From Octopus vulgaris (taxonomy: Eukaryota): 64,000 bases of DNA. Position numbers and translations under genes: made by a program. The stretch spans positions 121,272,001 to 121,336,000 of the forward strand of contig OX597815.1 of NCBI GenBank assembly GCA_951406725.2. Reading direction: 5' to 3'. Shown here piece by piece: positions 508 through 64,000 of the stretch (position 1 is its first letter; each line of letters begins with the position of its first letter). The notes below the pieces were generated by a model. That model saw nothing but the letters and a program-made list of their open reading frames with translations. It had not been told where the DNA came from and ran no database searches.

Positions 508-1908
508 CAGAGGATGGTCACAAGAAAAGCAGAAAATTTGAAGGCAAAACTAACAAGGATTAGTTAGATCATCAATAATCTATATGATAGGTGGTTTCTG
601 ATTCATTGTTTCTGTCATGTAATCATAACAAGCATTGATGTCATTTGCTTCTGAGTGAGCCCCACATGATGGAAGAAAGCTGTGGAAGGAAACAGTCATC
701 AGACTTTCAGAGACAAATTATTGTTCCCTTCAAGAGTGAAAATCTGACTTGGGGACTGACTAGATGTTTAACTGTACTACCAAACTTTTTTTCAACTATC
801 ACAAGGCATCAATTTAATAACTGTTGTTGAAACTTTGAAACAGGAAGGACCTCAAACAGCTAGTGCTTACAAAAAGGGGACTGGACCAAAGAAACGAATT
901 TAGTTGTGTTACCTGTTTGACAAGGCACAACAGAGACATTTAAGTCAATGAAAGATCACTTGACATCACTCAATGAGAGATCACTCAACATCACTCAGTG
1001 AGAGATCACTCAATATTTCAAAAACATCTGTGATTGAAATTCTCAAAGAAAGTGAACTGAAGTTGCTATCAAAGAATAAAATGTAACATTCTTACTGAGC
1101 GACATCAGGAAATACAAGCAAATAAGTTGGTTGCACTGATTAATTGTTTTGAATAAGAATATGCTTTGAGAAAAGTATGGTTTTCAGATGAAATAATATT
1201 TCCACTGCACCCTCCTTTGAACAGATAAAATGATCACATTTACTAAGAAGTGTATTTGAATGTGAAAACTGACATACCTGGCAAAGAGCTGCTAGTGGAA
1301 TATGATAACTTACAGCCATCAGTGTTTTGTTATGCTGCTGTTGGATGGCATGGAAAAACAGAGCTAAGATTTATTGAAGAATATTGCCATAGTCCTCAAT
1401 GAAGGAAAAAGAAAATTGTAAGCCAACAAGTTTACTGTGAGGAAATATGTCTACAAATTCTCATGGGTGATGAGTCATGGACATGGCTGCAGGATGGTGC
1501 AATGCCCCACACAGCCAGGGCTACAATTCAGTTTCTCCAGCAATCTACCCCTTGCTTTATTGCACCTGGAGATTGGCCTTCAAAGAGTCTGGACTTAAAT
1601 GTGATGAATTACTGTGTCTGAAGCCTAGCAGAGATAAATATGAATGCCATATAACTATTACTGATGAATTGAAAACATGTTCAATAAAAAAACTGGAATG
1701 ACATCTCTCAAGTTACGCTTCAAAATTCCACTCAAGCTTGGATTTCTCAATTAAAATGTGGTCACAAAGTGCATGGAAAACATTTTGAACATCTGTGAGT
1801 ATTAATATGATATCACGCTTTGTGGTGCTTATTGTTTACCTCAAAGACATCTTGTGAAAATATAAATCAGCATTTCATGAATTTTCTGCTTTCCTAGTGA
1901 CCACCCTG
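508..1908 (+). mobile_element. Degenerate Tc1/mariner-superfamily DNA transposon, DD37D (maT) type, transposase pseudogene
   Basis: Imperfect TIRs CAGAGGATGGTCACAAGAAAAGCAGAAAATT and AATTTTCTGCTTTCCTAGTGACCACCCTG, followed by TA. Translated fragments KVWFSDE (about 1172-1192) and WLQDGAMPHTA...DWPSKSLDLNVMNYCV*. There are 37 residues between the second D and the third catalytic position, which is now N. Confidence 0.88.
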
Positions 1909-4270
1909 TATATATATATATACATGTGTATATGTGTGTATAGGTACATTTTGGCCTTTTTGGGCCTTTTCAATGATGTGCTGGTCCAGTGCTCACAAAA
2001 ACTTGTTTTGATTCTGGTGTTCACAATCTCTTGAAAAGGTAATATGGCATAGGCACATGACAGGATGTCTCTAAAATCTTTGAGAGTCACAAAAAGCACA
2101 AGGATGCCCATGTGCAATACTTTTAGTGGAGAGTGGATGCTGTGGATTTATAGCAGTACACCACTATGTCCCACCTGGCAGGCATTAAAGCTAAGATCAA
2201 TAACAGCAGTAACTGGCAACCAGCAGAGAGAAACAGAGAAACCTCCATTATGGATATGGTAGAAGCATGTAAGAGAAAGAATAAAACCAAACTTTCAGCA
2301 ATATTTGTTCTTTCATTCATTTTTATATCTATTTTTCCATACTTGGATTAGATGAATGTATTGCTGAGGCATATATTATTTTACAACCAGATGCTCTTCC
2401 TATTGCTGACCTTTGCTGATTTTCATGTGGTGGAGGGATCTTATTCCACACATCAAATTACTGGCAGAAAAAGTGGAACAAATGAATCTGGTTATTCTCT
2501 GGTAGTATCACTGCTGTTTAGCTTTTACAGTGAGGAGAGATGCAGTCAGGAGCTACCAAAATCATTATGATCTCCAGTTACCAGCTGGCAATGCGTATGT
2601 TCCATAATGTAAGCTATATGTAACATATTTTATATAATTTGTTGAAACAGTTTTAAACAGGAACTAAAGTTAATTAAAACTATTGCCATCTCAATCAAGC
2701 ACAAAAGAATTTAACATTTTGATATATAAATAATCTTGTTTATAGTAAGATATCTTATAAATTGAATCATTTGAAAATAAAGTAAATTTGAAATATGTTA
2801 TATTTCACATAATATATTGTCTAATATAACATATTTCTCTGAAAATATTTTTGGTTGAAGGAGACAAAATTATTTTATAATAATCAGAAATTTCATTTCA
2901 ACTAAATGAATAGTCAAGTTTTCTTTCTCTTAATAGCGATTTATTCTGTCTCAAGAATATAAAACTTTACAATATTAACTAAGGAAATATGTACATTGAA
3001 TATCTTCATTCAAATGAATACCTCCAAGAGTGAATTCTGCTATGTATTTAGGAAAACAAAATAGAATACTGCCACCTCTTTTGTAAAAGCCAGAGAAAAT
3101 ATAGAAATAACCAAAGTATTGTCTGCTTTTGTAGAAATAGAACTCTTTGTGTCTTCTATTTTTGCAGGTAAATATTACAATGGATTTAAAATAATTCTTT
3201 ATTCATATTTCTCGTTTCTAACTTGTATAATGTCTATGTCATGCTTCCTGTCTTAAAAGAGAGATATGCTACACAAAAGGAATCTAACAGAGAGTAGTGC
3301 AAACAAAAATATAAATTTAAATTTCTACCAAACCCTTTTAAATGGCCAGTATTTAAACAGAGCTAATTAGCATAAAATAGATAAGAATAATAAGTAAATA
3401 TTTCTCTGGATAAAACACTAGTTTACATCAGTGGATAACATTTTCAAATTCATCTGGTACTTACACGCAATACGTAGGTAAAATGAGGAAATGAGAATAA
3501 AAGCAATTCTTCCCAGAAACAAAGCAACTGAAGTAGATTTGGACTCACAACCTAGAGAGGAGTCCATTACCTTTCCCATTTAATCATATTGTCTCTCAGA
3601 ATGGTTGTCTGGCTAAGGACTCTGCTTCAGAACTGAGTTCTTAAGGGTTTAATCTCACTGTGTGAAAAGTGCTGGCTAATGTGTTGTCCAATACATTATA
3701 AGGAAAATTGGTAAATAGAAAGGAATATGGTGTGTGTGTGAGAGTATATAACAGTTTTCTCAAAAACTACCATTGTTCACATTGTGATTTCTCAACTAGA
3801 TCTCATATTGGTTTAATAATTCATGCTCATGTTCATATCTATAAAACTTTTGGTGGCCTGAGGACTCACATGAGTAGTCACCAGATGAAGTGAATGAATT
3901 GTAAACATTGGTGAATGGTAGTAATAGAAATGAGAGTGTGTTGTTGATAGTTTATTTGGTTGGAGTCTTTTCTTTTTTAGTCTTCTCACAGAACACCCAA
4001 GCATTGTCTTTGACAGGAAAATCCATCATACATATATATATTAATCAAAGTGAACTGTATTATATATCCATTAGGGCTAATCTTACCAATCGGTTTCACA
4101 CTAGGGGTTCAACAGAATGTTAGGATTATGTAAAGTCAGATTATGTAACCCTGCACTCTTCGGAGATAGTCATTATGGAATGAAATATGTCAAAGAGTCC
4201 AACACATGCCAGCATAGAGAATGGGTGTTAAATGATGGAGATTAACTTTTATATATATTTTAAAAATCTT

Positions 4271-20216: not shown

Positions 20217-22379
20217 ACTTATTGAATAAATGGTGAATATCACTAGATACTGAACAGATTAACAATCATCAAACTATCAATGGCCAGTATCTATCAGTTC
20301 AATAAGTGAGCTACTTGCCAACATCTGTGGTCATGGTGTGTGCAGGTGAGATATTTCAAACTGTGAAAGATCAATGTGATAAAAACCCTAACTAGACAAT
20401 CATGCCATATTGTTCAAAAAGGACATCTGATGTGGTATAGTTGCAATGGCCCAAGCAAGTCAATTGACAGGATGATTATACTGTATATACATATACAAAT
20501 TCTGCTGAGGTTGACTTTCATCCTTTCAGGGACAATAAAATAACCATTGAGTACTAGAATTGATATAACTGACTTGCTCACTCCCTCGTAATTTCTAGCC
20601 TTGTGCCAAAATTTGAAACTAATATTACATATACACAACCCTATAAAAAAAAAGTAAAACTCAGTCATCACTCACAAATGACTATGATTTTCTAGTTTGT
20701 ACCATGCTTTCATTTAGGGTTTAGGTGCCTATGCAGTCACATGTTGATATAGACATCCCCTCACTCCTTATTTCTTGACCCAAGGGAAAAATTAAGGATG
20801 TAATGACCAGCAGGAAATAGGACTGCACCAATACTCAGCTACTTTTTATTTTCATCTGAATTGGCTAAAGTGACACGAAATGGAGTGCCCTGCTCAAGAA
20901 CTCAAGGTACTGCCCATTCTGAGAATTGAATCTTATGATCAGGAGCTGAACATCCTAACCAATAGGCCACACCTATCCACTGTGAGACCCTACTGTATTA
21001 CTTTTCTTTTAACTGTTTTAACTGTTTCATTCATTGAACTGTGGCCATGCTGAAAGGTTTAGTCAAATAAGTTATTTCCAGTGCTTATTTTTAAGCCAGG
21101 TTCATTTTGAAAAAAAAAAAAACATTTTTAATTGCTGTAGAAAGTATTCTTGTCAGTAAAATTAAAAAACATCTACTTCAATTATGATTTTGTATTATTG
21201 ATACTACATCAAAGCTGACATACAAACAAATCCTATATAGGTTTCAATCACATTTTGGGACTCCATAACAAAGTACATTACACTCTTTGGGGCTTCTTTC
21301 AGTCAGGGTTGATCATTTATCTAAATCTGTATCTGCAGGCCTATGCACAGTTCCTTGTGAAAGACTGGCAGTTGTCCATGCATGCAAGTGACTTCTCTCC
21401 ATACTACCAACGTTGCCCAAGGAAAAGGCTGTCACTTAAGGGCCAATATAGTTTGAAACCAGTGTCATTGCTGGCATTACTGTCTGACTGCACAAAGCCA
21501 AAAGGAATTTTGTTGAACCTCACTAACAGTTCTGCTAATCCATTATTCTGAATTGATGTTTTTTATCAACCACAAAACAATGAAAAACAAAGTTGGCTCT
21601 GGTAGGATTTGAACTCAGAGCACAGAAAGTCAAAACAATGCTCTCTAACAACTCTGTCAAATTGCCACCTTTCGGTATTCTCCTGTCTATTTATCAGAAG
21701 TAGAACTACTCCCAAGACATCTTACTTGGCTTATAAATCAGTTTCTCTAAATCGTTATGTAAATTGCTTGAATTTTTAGAGCCAACCAAGTCAAGAACTA
21801 TGATGATAAATATATATTCTCTCTTCTAATACCAAACTTTCAAGTGGGAAATGACAGACAAGATGTATCTTCTAGATAGACTAAGGTAAGTTGAGTGATT
21901 TGTTTTCTTCATTTTTGATACTTCCGTATAATCTTCCATTCTTCTATGTAGATTCTTCTTTCAATGAAATAAAGGGTAAAGCTTATACAATCTTGTTTTA
22001 TTGTCTTTCAAAAATCATGTTTCATTGTTACCAAAATAATTATTTGGTCATAATGGACAATTTATCTCGGAAAAGAAGTAATTCATAATTTAGCTGGTTA
22101 TTCTTCATTGGCATAAACCTTTGTTTATATGGGTCATGACATCATAAACATAATCAGTATTTATTTTATTTTATCTTCAAAATTCAGGAATGATTTACAA
22201 AGCTGTCCTGGACATTGGCCATGCTGGGGCACCACTTTGAAGGCTTTTTAATCAATCAAATTGGCCCTGCCCGACAATTTTTTTTTTAATCCAGTTCTAT
22301 ATGTAAGAGATGAGGAATTATGTACATTATTTACATTATTTACATTCAATGGATATTTGTCCTCATATTGTTTGTTGTT

Positions 22380-22425
22380 AACACAACGTTTCGACTGATA
22401 TACCCTCCAGCCTTCTTCAGGTGTC
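22380..22425 (-). ncRNA. Variant minimal hammerhead-like motif
   Basis: GACAC-CUGAAGA-A-GGCUG[GAGGGUAUAU]CAGUC-GAAAC-GU-U-GUGUU. Stems I and II pair; there is an extra A after the core and a GUU triplet. Confidence 0.6.
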
Positions 22426-22486
22426 TAGGGGAAATTTTGAACCAGGGTTCTCATTCCTAAGGTATTTTTCAATGTTATTCTTCTTC

Positions 22487-22542
<56 letters not shown>

Positions 22543-22770
22543 GTTATTGTTCAGATCACTGCTTGGAATCAAACTCGGAATCCTGGGTTAGTAGCCCATG
22601 CTCTAAACCACTACACCCACGAGCATATGGCGTAGTGGTTAAGAGCACAGGCTACTAACCCAAAGATTCCGAGTTCGATTCCAAGCAGTGACCTGAACAA
22701 TAATAATGATAAGAAGAAGAACATTGAAAAATACTTTAGGAATGAGAACCCAAGTTCCAAATTTCCCCAA

Positions 22771-22816
22771 GATACCTGAAGAAGGCTGGAGGGTATATCA
22801 GCTGAAACGTTGTGTT
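22771..22816 (+). ncRNA. Variant minimal hammerhead-like motif, mirror copy
   Basis: GAUAC-CUGAAGA-A-GGCUG...CAGCU-GAAAC-GU-U-GUGUU. Confidence 0.55.
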
Positions 22817-23008
22817 AACAACAAACAAGATGAGAACAATTATCCGTTGAATGTAAATAATGTAAATAATTTATTTTTTAAGTCTGGTATTTATGCTCTT
22901 GGTTTCTCTTTTTTTGTATCAAACTGATATATTATGAGGATGTAAATAAACCAATGCCGTTGCTCCGACATGTATGCACATACACATACATGCAGATACA
23001 CACATGTG

Positions 23009-24040: not shown

Positions 24041-27000
24041 ATAACTACTTGTAGCCTTCTGTGGAAGGCTTTTGTTGGCCTGGGGTTATAGTAGAAGACA
24101 TTTGCAGTGAGACAGAACCCAAAACCATGTGATTGAGAAGCAAACTTCTTAACCATGCAGCCACATCTGTGCTTCTATATGCATGCATGGCTGTGTGGTT
24201 AAGAAGTTCATATATGCACACACACATACATATAGTTTATTGGATAAGTTTTGATAACTGAATCCTGAATGTTGAAGATGAAATAAAAAATACCAATTAT
24301 GTTGTTTTGTAGCATCATGACCCATATATCTGAAGAATTCTGCCAATGATGAATGATCAGCTAAATTATGAATAACTTCTTTACGTAAATAAATGGTCTC
24401 TTCCGACCAAATAACTATTTTTGCTACTATGAAATATTATTTTAGAAAAGCAATAAAACAGTTTATATAAGTTTTTACCCTTTACTTACCTAGAAGAAAA
24501 TCTTCATAGAAGGACAGTAGATTACACAGAAGTGTCATAAATTAAGTAGATGAATCACTCAACTTGCATTAGTCATCTTAGTTTATTTCTCTGTTATCTC
24601 CAAGTTGAAAATTCTTTCTAATAAGAAAGAAGACTGTATATTCATCATGTTTAGTGTTCTTTGTATTGTGTAGCATTCTTTGTATCGAGCTTTTTGAAAC
24701 TTCTATCCTTATAAAAGACAGCTTTCAATCTATTTTGCTTAGCAACCTAATTAATCATGCAGAACTTTGTGCAGCTACTTTCATTGTAACTCTTATAAAA
24801 AGGAGCATATGTTGTGTCACATGATATCTGCCATTTACCTTAGCCAGCATTCTAAGCTGAATTAGCATACATCTATTTGTTATTCACTCACTGCATATAT
24901 TTTCTGGGAAATAGGAAAATATTCTATCCTCACCCTATTTTTGGCATTTACATCGAATGTTACTTGATCTAATCAGAATATAAACAGACAAAAAAATAGA
25001 ATTGACTTCTAAAGAATTAAAAAGAAGAAATATAAACATAAAAATCTATGGATTAAGTACAATTAAGAATGCAATTCCAAATAATCTCTTGATTACCAGA
25101 ATAATAATTACTTTTTTTTTCTATAATTCCAAATCTGTTGAAAGAAAATGATTCATCAGCAGGAATATTTTACTCAATAAACATAAAAATTCAATGGTTT
25201 GTATGTTTTTCCTCAAACATGTCCTAAGGATTAAAAAAAACAAAAAAACAAACAAAAAAACCCAAAATACCCAACAACTTGTTAAACACACAAACCACAT
25301 AAATTAAATTTATTGTGCATGTCACTGTGATTATCACATGGATTCCAAGAACATAGAATATTAAATCCAGTTGTTTCCAATTTAACGTGCTGATTTATCT
25401 GATATCAGAAAATCTGTTGCAAATGTTGATAACTCAAAACATTGCATATTTCAAATGTTATTTTTTTTCTTAAACTTATTGTAAATTATTAAAATCAAAA
25501 GCCAATACAAAATCTTAATTGAGTTTTGTTTTGTTATTGTCAGTTTTATCAAAGGGTTTCTTTCTTTCCTTCTTTCTTTCTGTCTTTCTTTCTTTCTTTC
25601 CTTCTTTCTTTCTTTCTTTACAAAATTATGCAAAAGATCCCAGAATTTCTTGTCATTAAAAGATCTCTTAATGCTGTATAAAGAAGAGTGACTTGAATTG
25701 ATAAGGTTATTTTTGTTGTTATTGTTGTTGTTTTTGTGGTGATGGTGGTGGTGGTAGTGTGTTGTGGTGGTGGTGGTGGTGGTGGTGTGTGGTAGTGGTG
25801 TGTGGTGGTAGTGTTTAGCCTCAGATCTTTTGGGATTGAGCTGATGCATTCCAACTATGACCATCCATTCTAATTATCAAACATAGAATATCTAAGGCTA
25901 CATTATCTAATGTGACTTTCATATTTTTAACACGCTAGACTATGACTTGTGGGAGATGTAGCTACTGCATTTCCTAGCCCGTCCATTACAAGGTCCAGTC
26001 CTTGTTGAAGTTTGTTGGCTCATGTGCCTCAATAACCCTGAGAGATAAGCCAAATAAGTGGGTGTGATGAGTGAAATGGGTGAGATTGGGTGCCAGTCTG
26101 GCTATAACAGTTGCAGCTTCTCAGCCCTCACTATTGGTTGTGGACATTACAGTACAAAATTTGATTCTTTGATTTTCACGAGCTCATGGAAGCTCATTTG
26201 AGCTTCGTGTCAGTTTGGGGGTAAATCCATACATGCCATTTTTTCTTTTGACATTTGCCTGAATAAATCAGTAGAGGTAATATTCCTAAGGCTGGTGCTG
26301 TAGTAGCTGTTTGGGGTGTTTGGAAGTGATTGTCCATGTAATGGCAAAACTGTTAGGGTATCCCAGTTTACTAAAATTCAGTATCTAGTTTTCTTCTAAT
26401 TAATCTTATTTGATGTGAATTCTTAAAAGCACTGAAAATTAGATAAAATTTAAATTTACATTACAATTACTGTTTAGCTCACCAACAAGCACCTTTCCCT
26501 GGGAAAAGTCTTGCTAAAAAGAAAAGAATAAATACAGTTTATACAGAAAGGAGAGAGAGCAGTTTAGCCTTGTGAAAGGCAATTATGTTTGTCATGGCAG
26601 TAGGATGAAATGCACCCAGTCTACACCATAAAGTAGCTGATAATGGGAAGGGTGTCCAGCTGTGAAAATTGCACCAAAATAACAACATATGCAACAATAG
26701 AGTTAATCAGTTTTCTCTGATGTTGTGTTTTCCAGATAATGAAGAACTACAGTAAGGGATAGGGTGAGTGTGTTAGATCTATCATACCCATGCTAGTATG
26801 GACAAATAGACATAAATTGATGGTGATGTACTTGTTAGTAAAATTTATTCCTTTGTTAGTTAGCTATAGTTTCTCTATAGGTTTCATTATATTTCTCAAA
26901 CGAATTGCAGGAGCAGTGAAAAGTATACAGTTGTGCAGAGAATTACTACTACATTAAGGATATGTTCAAATGTATTCAAAGATCTTTCTTACTAAACTAG

Positions 27001-38633: not shown

Positions 38634-39775
38634 TACCTAGGTGACCACATCAGTAGTGGGGGAGGATGCGCTGAAAGTGTAGCTGCTAGAATAAGAATAA
38701 CCTGGGCAAACTTCAGAGAGCTCTTACCTCTGCTGGTGACAAAGGGCCTCTCGCTCAGAGTGAAAGACAAACTGTATGACGCATGTGTATGAAAAGCCAT
38801 GCTACATGGCAGTGAAACATGGGCCTGGATTGCTGAGGACATGCATAAGCTCGCAAGGAATGAAGTCAGTATGATCCGAAGGATGTGTAATGTCAGTGTG
38901 CATACTCAACAGAGTGTAAGTACCTTGAGAGAAAAGTTGGACCTAAGAAGCATCAGATGTAGTGTGCAAGAGAGACAACTGCACTGGTATGGTCATGTGG
39001 CAAGAATGGATGAGGATAGCTGTGGGAAAAAGTGCCACACCCTAGCAGTTGAGGGAACCTGTAGAAGAGGTAGACCGATGAAGACCTGGGATGAAGTGGT
39101 GAAGCACAACCTTCGAACATTAGGCCTCACCGCGGCAATGACTAGTGACCAAGACCTTTGGAAATATGCTGTGCTTGAGAAGACTCGGCAAGCCAAATGA
39201 GACCATAACCTCGCAGCCTATGCCAGTGGTGTAACCAGCCCACTTATGCGTACCTTTTCCTTCATTGGACACTAAACTCTGGTTGTGAAGACCTGTTGAG
39301 GCAAGTGAAATCGAAATCGAAATCAAATTCGATGACTGGCATCCATGCTAGTGGAGCGCTAAGAGCACCATCTGAACGTGATCATTGCCAGAGGGGCTAA
39401 CTGGCTTCGATGCCGGTAGCACATAAAAAGCACCATTTGAGCGTGATCTTACCAGTGTCGCCTTACTGGCACCTGAAAAACTTTCAAGTGAGGTAATTGC
39501 CAGTGCCACTGGACTGGCTCCTGTGCAGGTGGCACATAAAAGAACACCATTTGAGTATGGCCGTTGCCAGTACCGGCTGACTGGCCCCGTGCTGGTGGAA
39601 TGTAAAAGCACCCACTACACTCATGGAGTGGTTGGCATTAGGAGGGGCATCAAGCTGTAGAAACATTGCCAGATTAAGTTTGGAGCCTGGTGCAGCCATC
39701 TGGTTCGCCAGTCCTCAGTCAAATAATCCAACCCATGCTAGTATGGAAAGCGGATGTTAAACGATGGTGATGATA
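38634..39775 (+). mobile_element. RTE-clade LINE, 5'-truncated (RT C-terminal region and 3' UTR)
   Basis: YLGDHISSGGGC...AMLHGSETWA...QLHWYGHVARM...RRGRPMKTW motifs. The UTR ends in GTTAAACGATGGTGATGAT. Confidence 0.92.
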
Positions 39776-39944: not shown

Positions 39945-40278
39945 CATATATATGATAGATGCCAGGCACGCCTGACTGGTTCCGACGCCAGTGTCACATA
40001 AAAATCATCATTCAGACATGGCTGATGCCATTGCCCCCTGACTGGCTCTTTTGCTGGTGGCACGTAAAAAGCACTATCTGAACATGATCGATACCATGCC
40101 CGACTGACTGGCACCTGTGCTGGTGGCAAGTAAAAAGCACCCACTACACTCTCCAAGTGGTTGGCATTAGGAAGGGCATCCAGCTGTAGAAACATTGCCA
40201 GATCAGATTGGAGCGTGGTACAGCCACTGGCTTTCCAGACCTCAGTCAAATTGTCCAATCCATGCCAGCATGGAAAAC
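39945..40278 (+). mobile_element. RTE 3' UTR fragment
   Basis: Homologous to 39340-39775. Confidence 0.85.
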
Positions 40279-47927: not shown

Positions 47928-48460
47928 TATCATCATCATCATCATCATCATCATTTAACGTCCGCTTTCCATGCTAGCATGGGTTGGACGGTTCAACTGG
48001 GGTCTGGGGAGCCCGAAGGCTGCACCAGGCCAGTCAGATCTGGCAGTGTTTCTACAGCTGGATGCCCTTCCTAACGCCAACCACTCCGAGAGTGTAGTGG
48101 GTGATTTTATGTGCCACCGACACAGGTGCCAGACGAGGCTGGCGAACGGCCACGCTCGGATGGTGTTTTTTTTTATGTGCCACCAACACAGGTGCCAGAT
48201 GAGGCTGGCAGACGGCCACGCTCGGATGGTGTTTTTATGTGCCACCGACACAGGTGCCAGATGAGGCTGGCGAACAGCCATGATCGGATGGTGTTTGTTA
48301 CGTGCCCACAGCACGGAGGCCAGTCGATGCGGTACTGGCTACGGCCACGTTCGGATGGTTTTCTTGTATGCCACCGGCACTGGTACCACAAAGATACAAA
48401 TTCCATTGATGTTCATCTATTTTGATTTGTTTTGATTTGATTTGATTTGATTTTGATTTT
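47928..48460 (-). mobile_element. Young RTE 3' UTR fragment with an internal minisatellite of about 62 bp
   Basis: CpG-rich reverse complement of 39310-39775, with 3-4 tandem units at 48105-48380. Confidence 0.88.
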
Positions 48461-63390: not shown

Positions 63391-64000
63391 CAACTGGTGG
63401 ACAGGTGTCAGTTAATTACAGCCGTTTCTAACGAATTTTTTAATAGATCAATGAGTACATTATATCAATATAAAAAAGCCTTTTCTTCAGATGAATACAT
63501 GTATTTTGCAATCAAGGACATTTAAAAAAAAATTTAATCCATGGCACATACATATTTAGTGAATCCACGACTAGCCCTTGTAGGTACATCCCCTTTAAGT
63601 GATTAGCATAAGTCGGAGCAACTTTTGTCCTCACTGCAATCCCATTGCCATTGAAGTAAAAAGAATGGTTTTCCAGAATAAATTTTAATCCTTCAGCAAT
63701 GAAAATCTTTTCAGTTCTATCTGGAATTTCGTGAGGTAATTTCTGAGGCCAGAAAGTTATTGCCTCTAGTCTATATTGGCATGGGATTGTGGTAGAGAGG
63801 TTTACCACATCAAAAGATACAATAGTGGTATCATTGTTTATCGATTTTGGGAGGTAGTTTAACAGGTCCAGGTTGTCGCTTATGAGACTTGTATGTATTT
63901 TAAAATAGGTTTCAGTAATATATCTAAAAAGTTACCGAGTCTGTGTGTTTCACAGTTCAGGCTTGCTATGATTGGTCTAAATTTAAGGTCAATGCAACAT
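63390..64000 (-). mobile_element. Penelope-like element reverse transcriptase fragment (pseudogene, runs off the window) with a downstream pLTR piece
   Basis: LKFRPIIASLNCETHRLGNFLDILLKP...IVSFDVVNLSTTIP...LKFILENHSFYFNG/GIAVRTKVAPTYAN are PLE RT motifs, with a frameshift and a deletion. Confidence 0.88.
63414..63493 (-). ncRNA. Decayed type I hammerhead motif
   Basis: AU-CUGAAGA-...-GAAAC-GGCU-GUA-AU. The core is intact but stem II pairs poorly. Confidence 0.5.

Follow-up and report, generated by a model that had tools for sequence, protein, structure and literature searches.

Several described mobile elements come close to the element reported here. In the account of Poseidon_Ac from the green anole, a single ORF encodes an RT with a C-terminal GIY-YIG domain, the ORF start lies in the pLTR beside the hammerhead, and two 3' ends define a tail of 30-40 nt at AT-rich targets, with uncleaved RNA as the PLE template, and our element is similar in all of these features (PMC11167929). 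According to that study, both strands are cut by the PLE protein, reverse transcription begins at two internal sites which define the tail, and the hammerhead is protein-assisted (PMC11167929). Unlike Poseidon_Ac as described, our element has a tRNA-Arg-like head in the pLTR, a sense strand free of T4 runs and 5' ends at the head (PMC11167929). Metazoan PLEs are described with minimal type I hammerheads that share with ours the core, the extra nucleotide, G10.1-C11.1, the palindromic 15.2-16.2 and a short helix I, and hammerhead pairs on opposite strands, 100-700 bp apart, are reported for them (PMC4209133). Inverted 5'-truncated PLE copies with a one-sided tail have also been described, and our copies likewise carry the tail at one end (PMC8557442). 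Compared with these hammerheads and inverted copies, as far as they are described, the difference is a tRNA-derived promoter in our element (PMC4209133, PMC8557442).

Outside the coding PLEs, the schistosome repeats Sm-alpha and Sj-alpha similarly combine a tRNA-related repeat with a hammerhead and are reported to be Pol III transcribed; they differ in being non-coding and often tandem, and in having an active canonical hammerhead which leaves the promoter at the 3' end of the cleaved RNA (PMC2770079, PMC6765202). In these accounts, as cited, no autonomous partner with the same tRNA-like part is given (PMC2770079, PMC6765202). The TRIMp3 elements (Cassandra, Helenus and Ajax) resemble ours in having a small-RNA-derived Pol III promoter in the terminal repeat, and differ as non-autonomous LTR elements of 0.3-1.3 kb (PMC10886601). 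Their autonomous partners are argued to need Pol II and to be unlikely to share the repeat, and against this expectation the head-bearing repeat of our short copies is shared with the autonomous PLE (PMC10886601). Non-LTR retrozymes are also short hammerhead units homologous to pLTRs with many monomers, but they are defined by head-to-tail arrays and circular RNA, whereas the copies of our PLE occur either scattered singly or as head-to-head pairs, with a tRNA head (10.64898/2026.07.22.740005, PMC7229834). The octopus SINEs OK, OR1 and OR2 are also tRNA-derived octopus repeats, and one of them may be identical to our family. OR1 and OR2 are of tRNA-Arg origin and transcribed by Pol III in vitro, as Ohshima and Okada reportedly found in 1994. 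OR2 has been classed as a CORE-SINE (PMC4758252), and the many unclassified SINE and Penelope families of an O. vulgaris repeat paper may include the present one (PMC13282606). A tRNA-headed PLE pLTR was not found in the literature searched, a scope that excluded subscription journals, Repbase, Dfam and SINEBase, and in that literature we found tRNA-type Pol III transcription otherwise described for non-coding mobile elements only. The mirror form and the ribozyme are thus known PLE features, and the finding is the tRNA-headed, terminator-free autonomous element.

The window, a stretch of 64,000 nt from Octopus vulgaris, contains a real palindrome at 22292..22871, made of two head-to-head pLTRs of one PLE family (Table 1). 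Its inverted arms comprise 22323-22500 and 22696-22873, which are 90% identical, and in addition the head segments; relative to shuffles, folding of the central 131 nt has z = -14.5. From the centre outward, each strand carries an A box, an anticodon-like stem-loop, a B box, an AAT linker, a hammerhead-like core and ATGTAAATA repeats, so the palindromic arms and the order of parts proposed in the first-pass annotation are borne out. That annotation had placed the element at 22300..22872, where it indeed lies, but the insertion starts at 22292, because the left arm has an extra tail of ~25 nt absent from the right arm, and ends at ~22871. The stem TGGG-CTACTAA-CCCA, which had been read on each strand, is present on the left arm, and the right arm has CAGG-CTACTAA-CCCA instead. 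On the right arm the hammerhead-like core lies 148 nt past the A box, in agreement with the earlier estimate of about 150 nt or more. As for the two divergent Pol III-type promoters that had been proposed, the right boxes are intact, but on the left the first T of the A box is gone and the B box has GTTTGA where GTTCGA would be expected. ARAGORN and Rfam called no tRNA and no hammerhead in the window. The locus is a decayed copy and not a working bidirectional promoter.

Table 1 Parts of the head-to-head insertion and its flanks, in positions of the window.
Feature	Position	Strand	Details
Whole insertion	22292..22871		Two head-to-head pLTR copies of one PLE family
Left flank	22281..22291	+	Probable degenerate target-site duplication, T-rich; 8 nt exactly as in 22874-22881; weak evidence, because the site is of low complexity
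PLE tail	22292..22316	-	Left arm only
ATGTAAATA repeats, left arm	22317..22346	-	Location of the family's tail-less 3' end
Predicted minimal type I hammerhead, left arm	22380..22425	-	G10.1-C11.1 kept; predicted cut 22385/22384
ATG of the RT-endonuclease ORF of the family, left arm	22452..22454	-	Only the first ~50 codons are here
AAT linker, left arm	22466..22552	-	Expanded
tRNA-like head, left arm	22553..22618	-	5' end slightly truncated; mutated A box (22618-22608) and mutated B box (22576-22565)
Central junction	22615..22623		Decayed short self-complementary sequence of the family 5' end
tRNA-Arg-like head, right arm	22621..22694	+	Intact A box 22628-22638, B box 22671-22682
AAT linker, right arm	22695..22722	+	Private AAG-repeat variant common to the left arm
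ORF ATG, right arm	22742..22744	+	
Predicted minimal type I hammerhead, right arm	22771..22816	+	G10.1 faces U; predicted cut 22811/22812
ATGTAAATA repeats, right arm	22850..22871	+	Tail-less 3' end
T6 run in the flank	22874..22879	+	Inferred; may serve the right arm as a Pol III terminator

The arm turned out to be the pLTR of a protein-coding PLE. In three of the 30 best arm loci, a common upstream sequence translates as a PLE-like C-terminus. When the genome was searched with this C-terminus (2,386 candidates, 30 loci fetched), the arm unit or part of it was found directly after the ORF stop in 29 of the 30 ORF-end loci. A search with the 5' part of the ORF gave 340 candidates, and in the copy L093 the head-bearing unit is fused in frame to the ORF start. 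The majority-base profile of the family (2,619 nt, median depth 57, minimum 1) has an uninterrupted frame of 823 codons, which opens at the pLTR ATG upstream of the hammerhead. Its RT was recognised by Pfam (RVT_1, E 5.5e-10), and its C-terminal part is nearest to the HTH_animal and GIY-YIG clusters among ESM Atlas neighbours (0.96-0.97); the Pfam GIY-YIG model had no match in the three C-terminal pieces. The database homologues with RT number 51, at 26-68% identity, and a PDB search gave weak RT matches only. No copy was intact among the 150 scored RT matches. Judging from these sequence comparisons, the element is an EN+ PLE with a single ORF, in which RT is followed by GIY-YIG, and with a pLTR at both ends that overlaps the ORF start. 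For the clade we use the name Penelope/Poseidon, which we assume from the domain order. In a quick tree built without clade-labelled references, the element groups with 50 homologues, among them an Anolis protein, and two other PLE ORFs of the genome fall outside this group. A sister family sought in the same genome with P0003 was rejected; the matches appeared to be of the same family. The arm therefore is not merely similar to the pLTRs of autonomous PLEs, a likeness about which the first-pass annotation had asked, and adjoins both ends of the ORF. The tRNA-like head, considered there as a possible unrelated insertion, belongs to the autonomous element, and the real oddity is wider than the one first noted.

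The hammerhead also follows the PLE type. Among 222 family arms, a sample partly chosen by the motif itself, the CUGANGA core is kept in 195, GAAA in 180, and G10.1-C11.1 as G-C in 155; the right arm of the window has G-U at this pair. The extra nucleotide after position 9 and the palindromic 15.2-16.2 of minimal type I hammerheads are present. Helices I and II are the minimum-energy fold on both window arms, and single hammerhead arms fold no better than shuffles (z 0.40 and 0.08). In an alignment of 14 sequences (3 of this family and 11 related PLE metagenome motifs, the latter picked by the core pattern only), helices I and II covary, with 87.8% of cells paired and 44 double changes, compared with 0 of 500 shuffles and with 25-42% in slid controls. 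The ribozyme fold is thus supported by covariation across related PLEs, and the PLE-type ribozyme module that had been proposed is a minimal hammerhead of this type, for which self-cleavage is predicted. Rfam called neither a hammerhead nor a tRNA at 9 family loci. There was no pile-up of 5' ends at the predicted cut; among the 12 simple pLTR-ORF copies, 7 continue beyond it on the upstream side. The motif is likely a protein- or dimer-dependent ribozyme, and most templates would be uncut.

The mirror form can be understood from the 3' ends of the copies. In 99 hammerhead-bearing arms, which are 99 of the first 100 exact matches on one contig (C1) and hence a non-random sample, the 3' ends are bimodal, with one cluster at ORF +123 to +129 and another, ~30 nt away, at +154 to +156, and the same two ends are visible in the loose ends of RNA-seq reads. 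In pLTR-ORF copies, the tail sequence continues directly into the remaining ORF. Among 70 head-to-head pairs from 150 loci, 64 carry a tail on a single arm (p 8e-14 when tested against independence). Each left end was then represented by a single pair, which reduced the set to 68; a few of the pairs have flanks in common and are non-independent. In this set the ~30-nt tail is found on one arm in 62 pairs, on both arms in none and on neither in 6, and an exact target-site duplication of at least 8 nt, with a peak at 12-13 nt, is found in 46, compared with 1.7% of 4,556 mismatched flank pairs. Mirror pairs therefore have one 3' end of each kind inside one target duplication of 12-13 nt, and the mirror form is the footprint of a single PLE insertion. 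By the tail asymmetry and the target-site duplications, the copy was placed by Penelope machinery and not by a LINE, as had been suggested at first. Neither the centre nor the arm length of the palindromes is constant, and both boxes, A and B, are present on both arms in 11 pairs, on one arm in 40 and on none in 17 (n=68), so a fixed architecture of the divergent-promoter palindrome is not supported. The counts of one tail per pair and of target-site duplications provide in vivo support for two-site, two-strand PLE priming, whatever the role of Pol III.

The two arms of a pair were also compared with each other. Hammerhead N7 is the same on both arms in 37 of 45 pairs and differs in 8, which means that the arms are not always copies of one template, and paired arms share 16 private changes compared with 7 expected. 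This agreement fits a usually common template and is compatible with both twin priming and fold-back. Fold-back junctions at self-complementary sequence are common (1,336 strand matches, with most sites counted twice). Paired arms showed no excess of A-to-G changes on their sense strand (73 changes at 53 A sites, compared with 46 T-to-C changes at 27 T sites).

The family is large. In the genome searched (2.8 Gb, 227 contigs), a first look gave 5,775 candidates for the arm, and exact 26-mers gave at least 6,481 matches to the hammerhead core and 4,238 to the head, each with 0 in the reversed control. When calibrated by the rates of exact matches in independently picked loci (29/99 for the hammerhead and 30/124 for the head), these correspond to roughly 22,000 arms with the hammerhead and 17,500 with the head. 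The native upstream junction belongs to about 2,700 arms (600 matches at a rate of 11/49). An exact count of 178 for the ORF end was discarded and is not comparable with the others, because its pattern matches only 1 of 53 ORF-linked copies. The copies are 6-7% divergent from the family majority, and half or more of the sampled words are present in 20 sequencing runs under six organism labels. A direct upstream copy was found for 2 of 99 arms, so these are not the head-to-tail tandems of retrozymes.

Most copies are short, ORF-less and tRNA-headed, and 11 of the 68 pairs carry both heads, which could speak for an independent non-autonomous palindromic SINE with a PLE-derived ribozyme tail and two divergent Pol III promoters, as first proposed; Sm-alpha, a tRNA-related SINE with a hammerhead, would be the precedent. 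We consider this very improbable, and it is already largely refuted. First, the head lies within an autonomous element, the arm being the pLTR of a protein-coding PLE. Second, two main haplotypes are common to ORF-linked (54) and solo (75) arms, and no solo-specific subfamily was detected (smallest p 0.043 over 17 sites). Third, the centres and arm lengths are variable, the one-tail footprint is that of a single PLE insertion, and the left promoter at the locus is mutated. The A/B-box head of tRNA-derived SINEs is present here, and a separate element sharing only the 3' end was not found.

The head aligns over its full length with tRNA-Arg, which scored highest among 12 genomic tRNAs for all 4 copies compared (z about 8-10), so the tRNA-headed arm of the first-pass annotation stands, and in the family majority both boxes, A and B, agree with the Pol III consensus and are normally spaced. 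In 108 head-bearing arms, 82 of the 5' ends fall within 31 nt at the head start (58 in the 16 nt leading to the A box and 24 in the next 15 nt), and the remaining ones lie further inside the head (10), within 24 nt upstream (6) or in the ORF (10). Arms that start at the head and arms that continue upstream occur at roughly 6:1. A complete 5' pLTR is present in a single long copy, L093, which likewise starts at the head, 5' of the ORF, and of about 15 pLTR-ORF junction copies only 1 extends as far as the head. Among genomic copies, conservation of the A and B boxes does not exceed that of the neighbouring sequence (0.91 and 0.90 compared with 0.90), which is expected of dead copies and gives no support. 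Among 80 related metagenome loci, no tRNA gene was found in the 54 scanned, and A/B patterns matched twice in the whole set, in neither case next to a match of the hammerhead.

The pile-up of 5' ends coincides exactly with a short self-complementary sequence, and with the common fold-back junctions there this would suit a passive head, that is, a tRNA or SINE captured in the PLE 3' UTR, at whose hairpin the RT stalls or switches without any Pol III. The absence of tRNA calls by Rfam and ARAGORN and the lack of support from RNA-seq are consistent with this explanation as well. We nevertheless regard it as unlikely. It does not account for the consensus boxes at normal spacing or for the start of L093 at the head, 5' of the ORF, and the pLTR and ORF are free of T4, whereas other PLE pLTR regions are rich in T runs.

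Since read-through by Pol III predicts a deficit of T runs, T4 runs were counted in the family and in controls. The sense strand of the 2,619-nt majority profile has none (P 0.029, 0.004 and 0.008 under three nulls). The absence falls short of significance with a dinucleotide-preserving null (P 0.073), since there is already a depletion of TT; the TT ratio is 0.80 in the family compared with a mean of 1.13 and a minimum of 0.88 in controls, and the loss of TT may have another cause. As a majority profile hides mutations, single copies provide the fair comparison. In 30 decayed single copies (53,686 nt) there are 24 T4 and 0 T5 runs, which is 0.45/kb and 0.21 of the expected number, compared with 1.95/kb and 1.13 of expected in 20 related families of similar T content. 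A T4-free ORF was found in 1 of 37 control PLE families, a set that excludes the nearest sister families (51-68% protein identity), and that one family has 4 T4 runs near its hammerhead. In 9 of 10 control hammerhead regions there are 2-10 T4 runs, and an intact PLE ORF of 781 codons in the same genome has 9 T4 and 4 T5 runs at the same T content (21% T). Low Phe content was dropped as evidence; it is common to the relatives. AATAAA occurs 2 times against 3.3, a depletion that is uninformative.

Transcript data were taken from three apparently unstranded RNA-seq runs of one study, using about 6% of each. In these runs there was no pile-up of read ends and no discrete RNA, and the depth per mate direction was about 1-20 in the 5' ORF and about 2,000 in the pLTR. 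Most reads run on into unrelated sequence and therefore reflect copies inside host transcripts. Pol III is held, in the account of the TRIMp3 elements, to be too weakly processive for autonomous elements (PMC10886601).

The labour could also be split between two polymerases, with Pol II making the coding RNA and the tRNA head driving a short Pol III RNA that serves as the template of the SINE-like copies. Here the source of the Pol II RNA would be a pLTR promoter or read-through from tandem copies, and the short RNA would come from pLTR-ORF junctions. The pile-up of 5' ends, the excess of head-start arms and the shared haplotypes are all explained in this way, and the P value under the dinucleotide null is compatible with it. 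PLE promoters have been described within the pLTR (PMC11167929, PMC2770079, PMC6765202), and the Pol III RNAs of mobile elements are described as short (PMC10886601). What is left unexplained is an ORF free of T4 over 2 kb far from the head, unlike in 36 of 37 related families, and we regard such a division as possible though rather improbable.

We therefore favour, at a probability of about 0.58, the interpretation that the mirror consists of two pLTRs of a protein-coding PLE with a tRNA-Arg-like head, the whole RNA of which is likely made by Pol III; the element is likely read by this polymerase, since its sense strand is without T4 stop signals. The fuller account, in which an autonomous PLE captured a tRNA-Arg promoter, purged T4 from its 2.5-kb ORF, has its RNA made by Pol III and spawns tens of thousands of SINE-like copies by internal priming, has in our view slightly better than even odds. 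According to this scheme, Pol III would start at the tRNA-like head and read the entire element, and the PLE protein would cut both target strands and prime reverse transcription twice, once per internal start site. If priming takes place in the first pLTR of its own RNA, only ~250-285 nt would be copied to the RNA 5' end, giving SINE-like copies, and if it takes place in the last pLTR, copying would proceed into the ORF and give ORF-bearing copies. The two cDNAs would then join head-to-head, often via the self-complementary sequence at the RNA 5' end. Reading by Pol III would also require the translation of an uncapped RNA.

In conclusion, if the coding RNA is a Pol III product, this would contradict the need for Pol II that is expected of autonomous elements (PMC10886601), and would show that translation of a long uncapped Pol III RNA is possible. 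If this is true, a SINE-like family can also arise without a separate SINE, the SINE and its partner being one element. Our PLE would then provide a testable model for the schistosome Sm-alpha, and some octopus 'SINE' annotations would be the ends of PLEs.

In ORF-linked copies of the Penelope-like element (PLE), such as that at locus L031, the stop codon of the ORF lies within a TATA-like sequence, TTTATAAG, about 22-29 nt upstream of the point at the tRNA-like head where the 5' ends of the arms cluster, and the spacing between the two is unchanged in 32 of 37 matches. The upstream element of tRNA-type promoters is usually found at such a distance before the start. At the other end of the frame, where the predicted hammerhead overlaps the ORF, the codons concerned encode a peptide that is matched at the N-terminus of a relative with 55% identity (P0003, P0055), and this protein-level comparison suggests that the overlap of the putative ribozyme with the ORF is conserved.

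The same genome holds a separate PLE family, which is young and has numerous frames of 781 codons that are still intact (for example, positions 945-3287 of locus L305); it served solely as a control. Other repeats of the window are listed below. Elsewhere in the genome, seven tRNA genes, mostly Cys, lie within 3 kb (locus L220, 138-2854), and two of them have altered anticodons.

Other repeats in the window
Feature	Position	Strand	Remark
ORF fragment	38793-39200	-	Presumed likeness, by motif, to C-terminal end of RTE-type LINE protein
A-box/B-box head	43294	+	Apparently unrelated SINE family
A-box/B-box head	20213	-	Apparently unrelated SINE family
Inverted pair, 146 nt, 79%	21994-22139 and 24315-24460		2.2 kb between; encloses palindrome
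Tandem units, 62-66 nt	39991-40140 and 48100-48306		Found again in many fetched loci
Decayed RT fragment	63512-63931	-	Likeness to 781-codon PLE family judged by eye

Reads spanning the strand-switch junctions are included in RNA-seq data, and no A-to-G excess was seen in the genomic arms. The inverted pairs of 250-800 nt, which number thousands genome-wide, would form long double-stranded RNA within host transcripts, and such RNA is a candidate substrate for ADAR.
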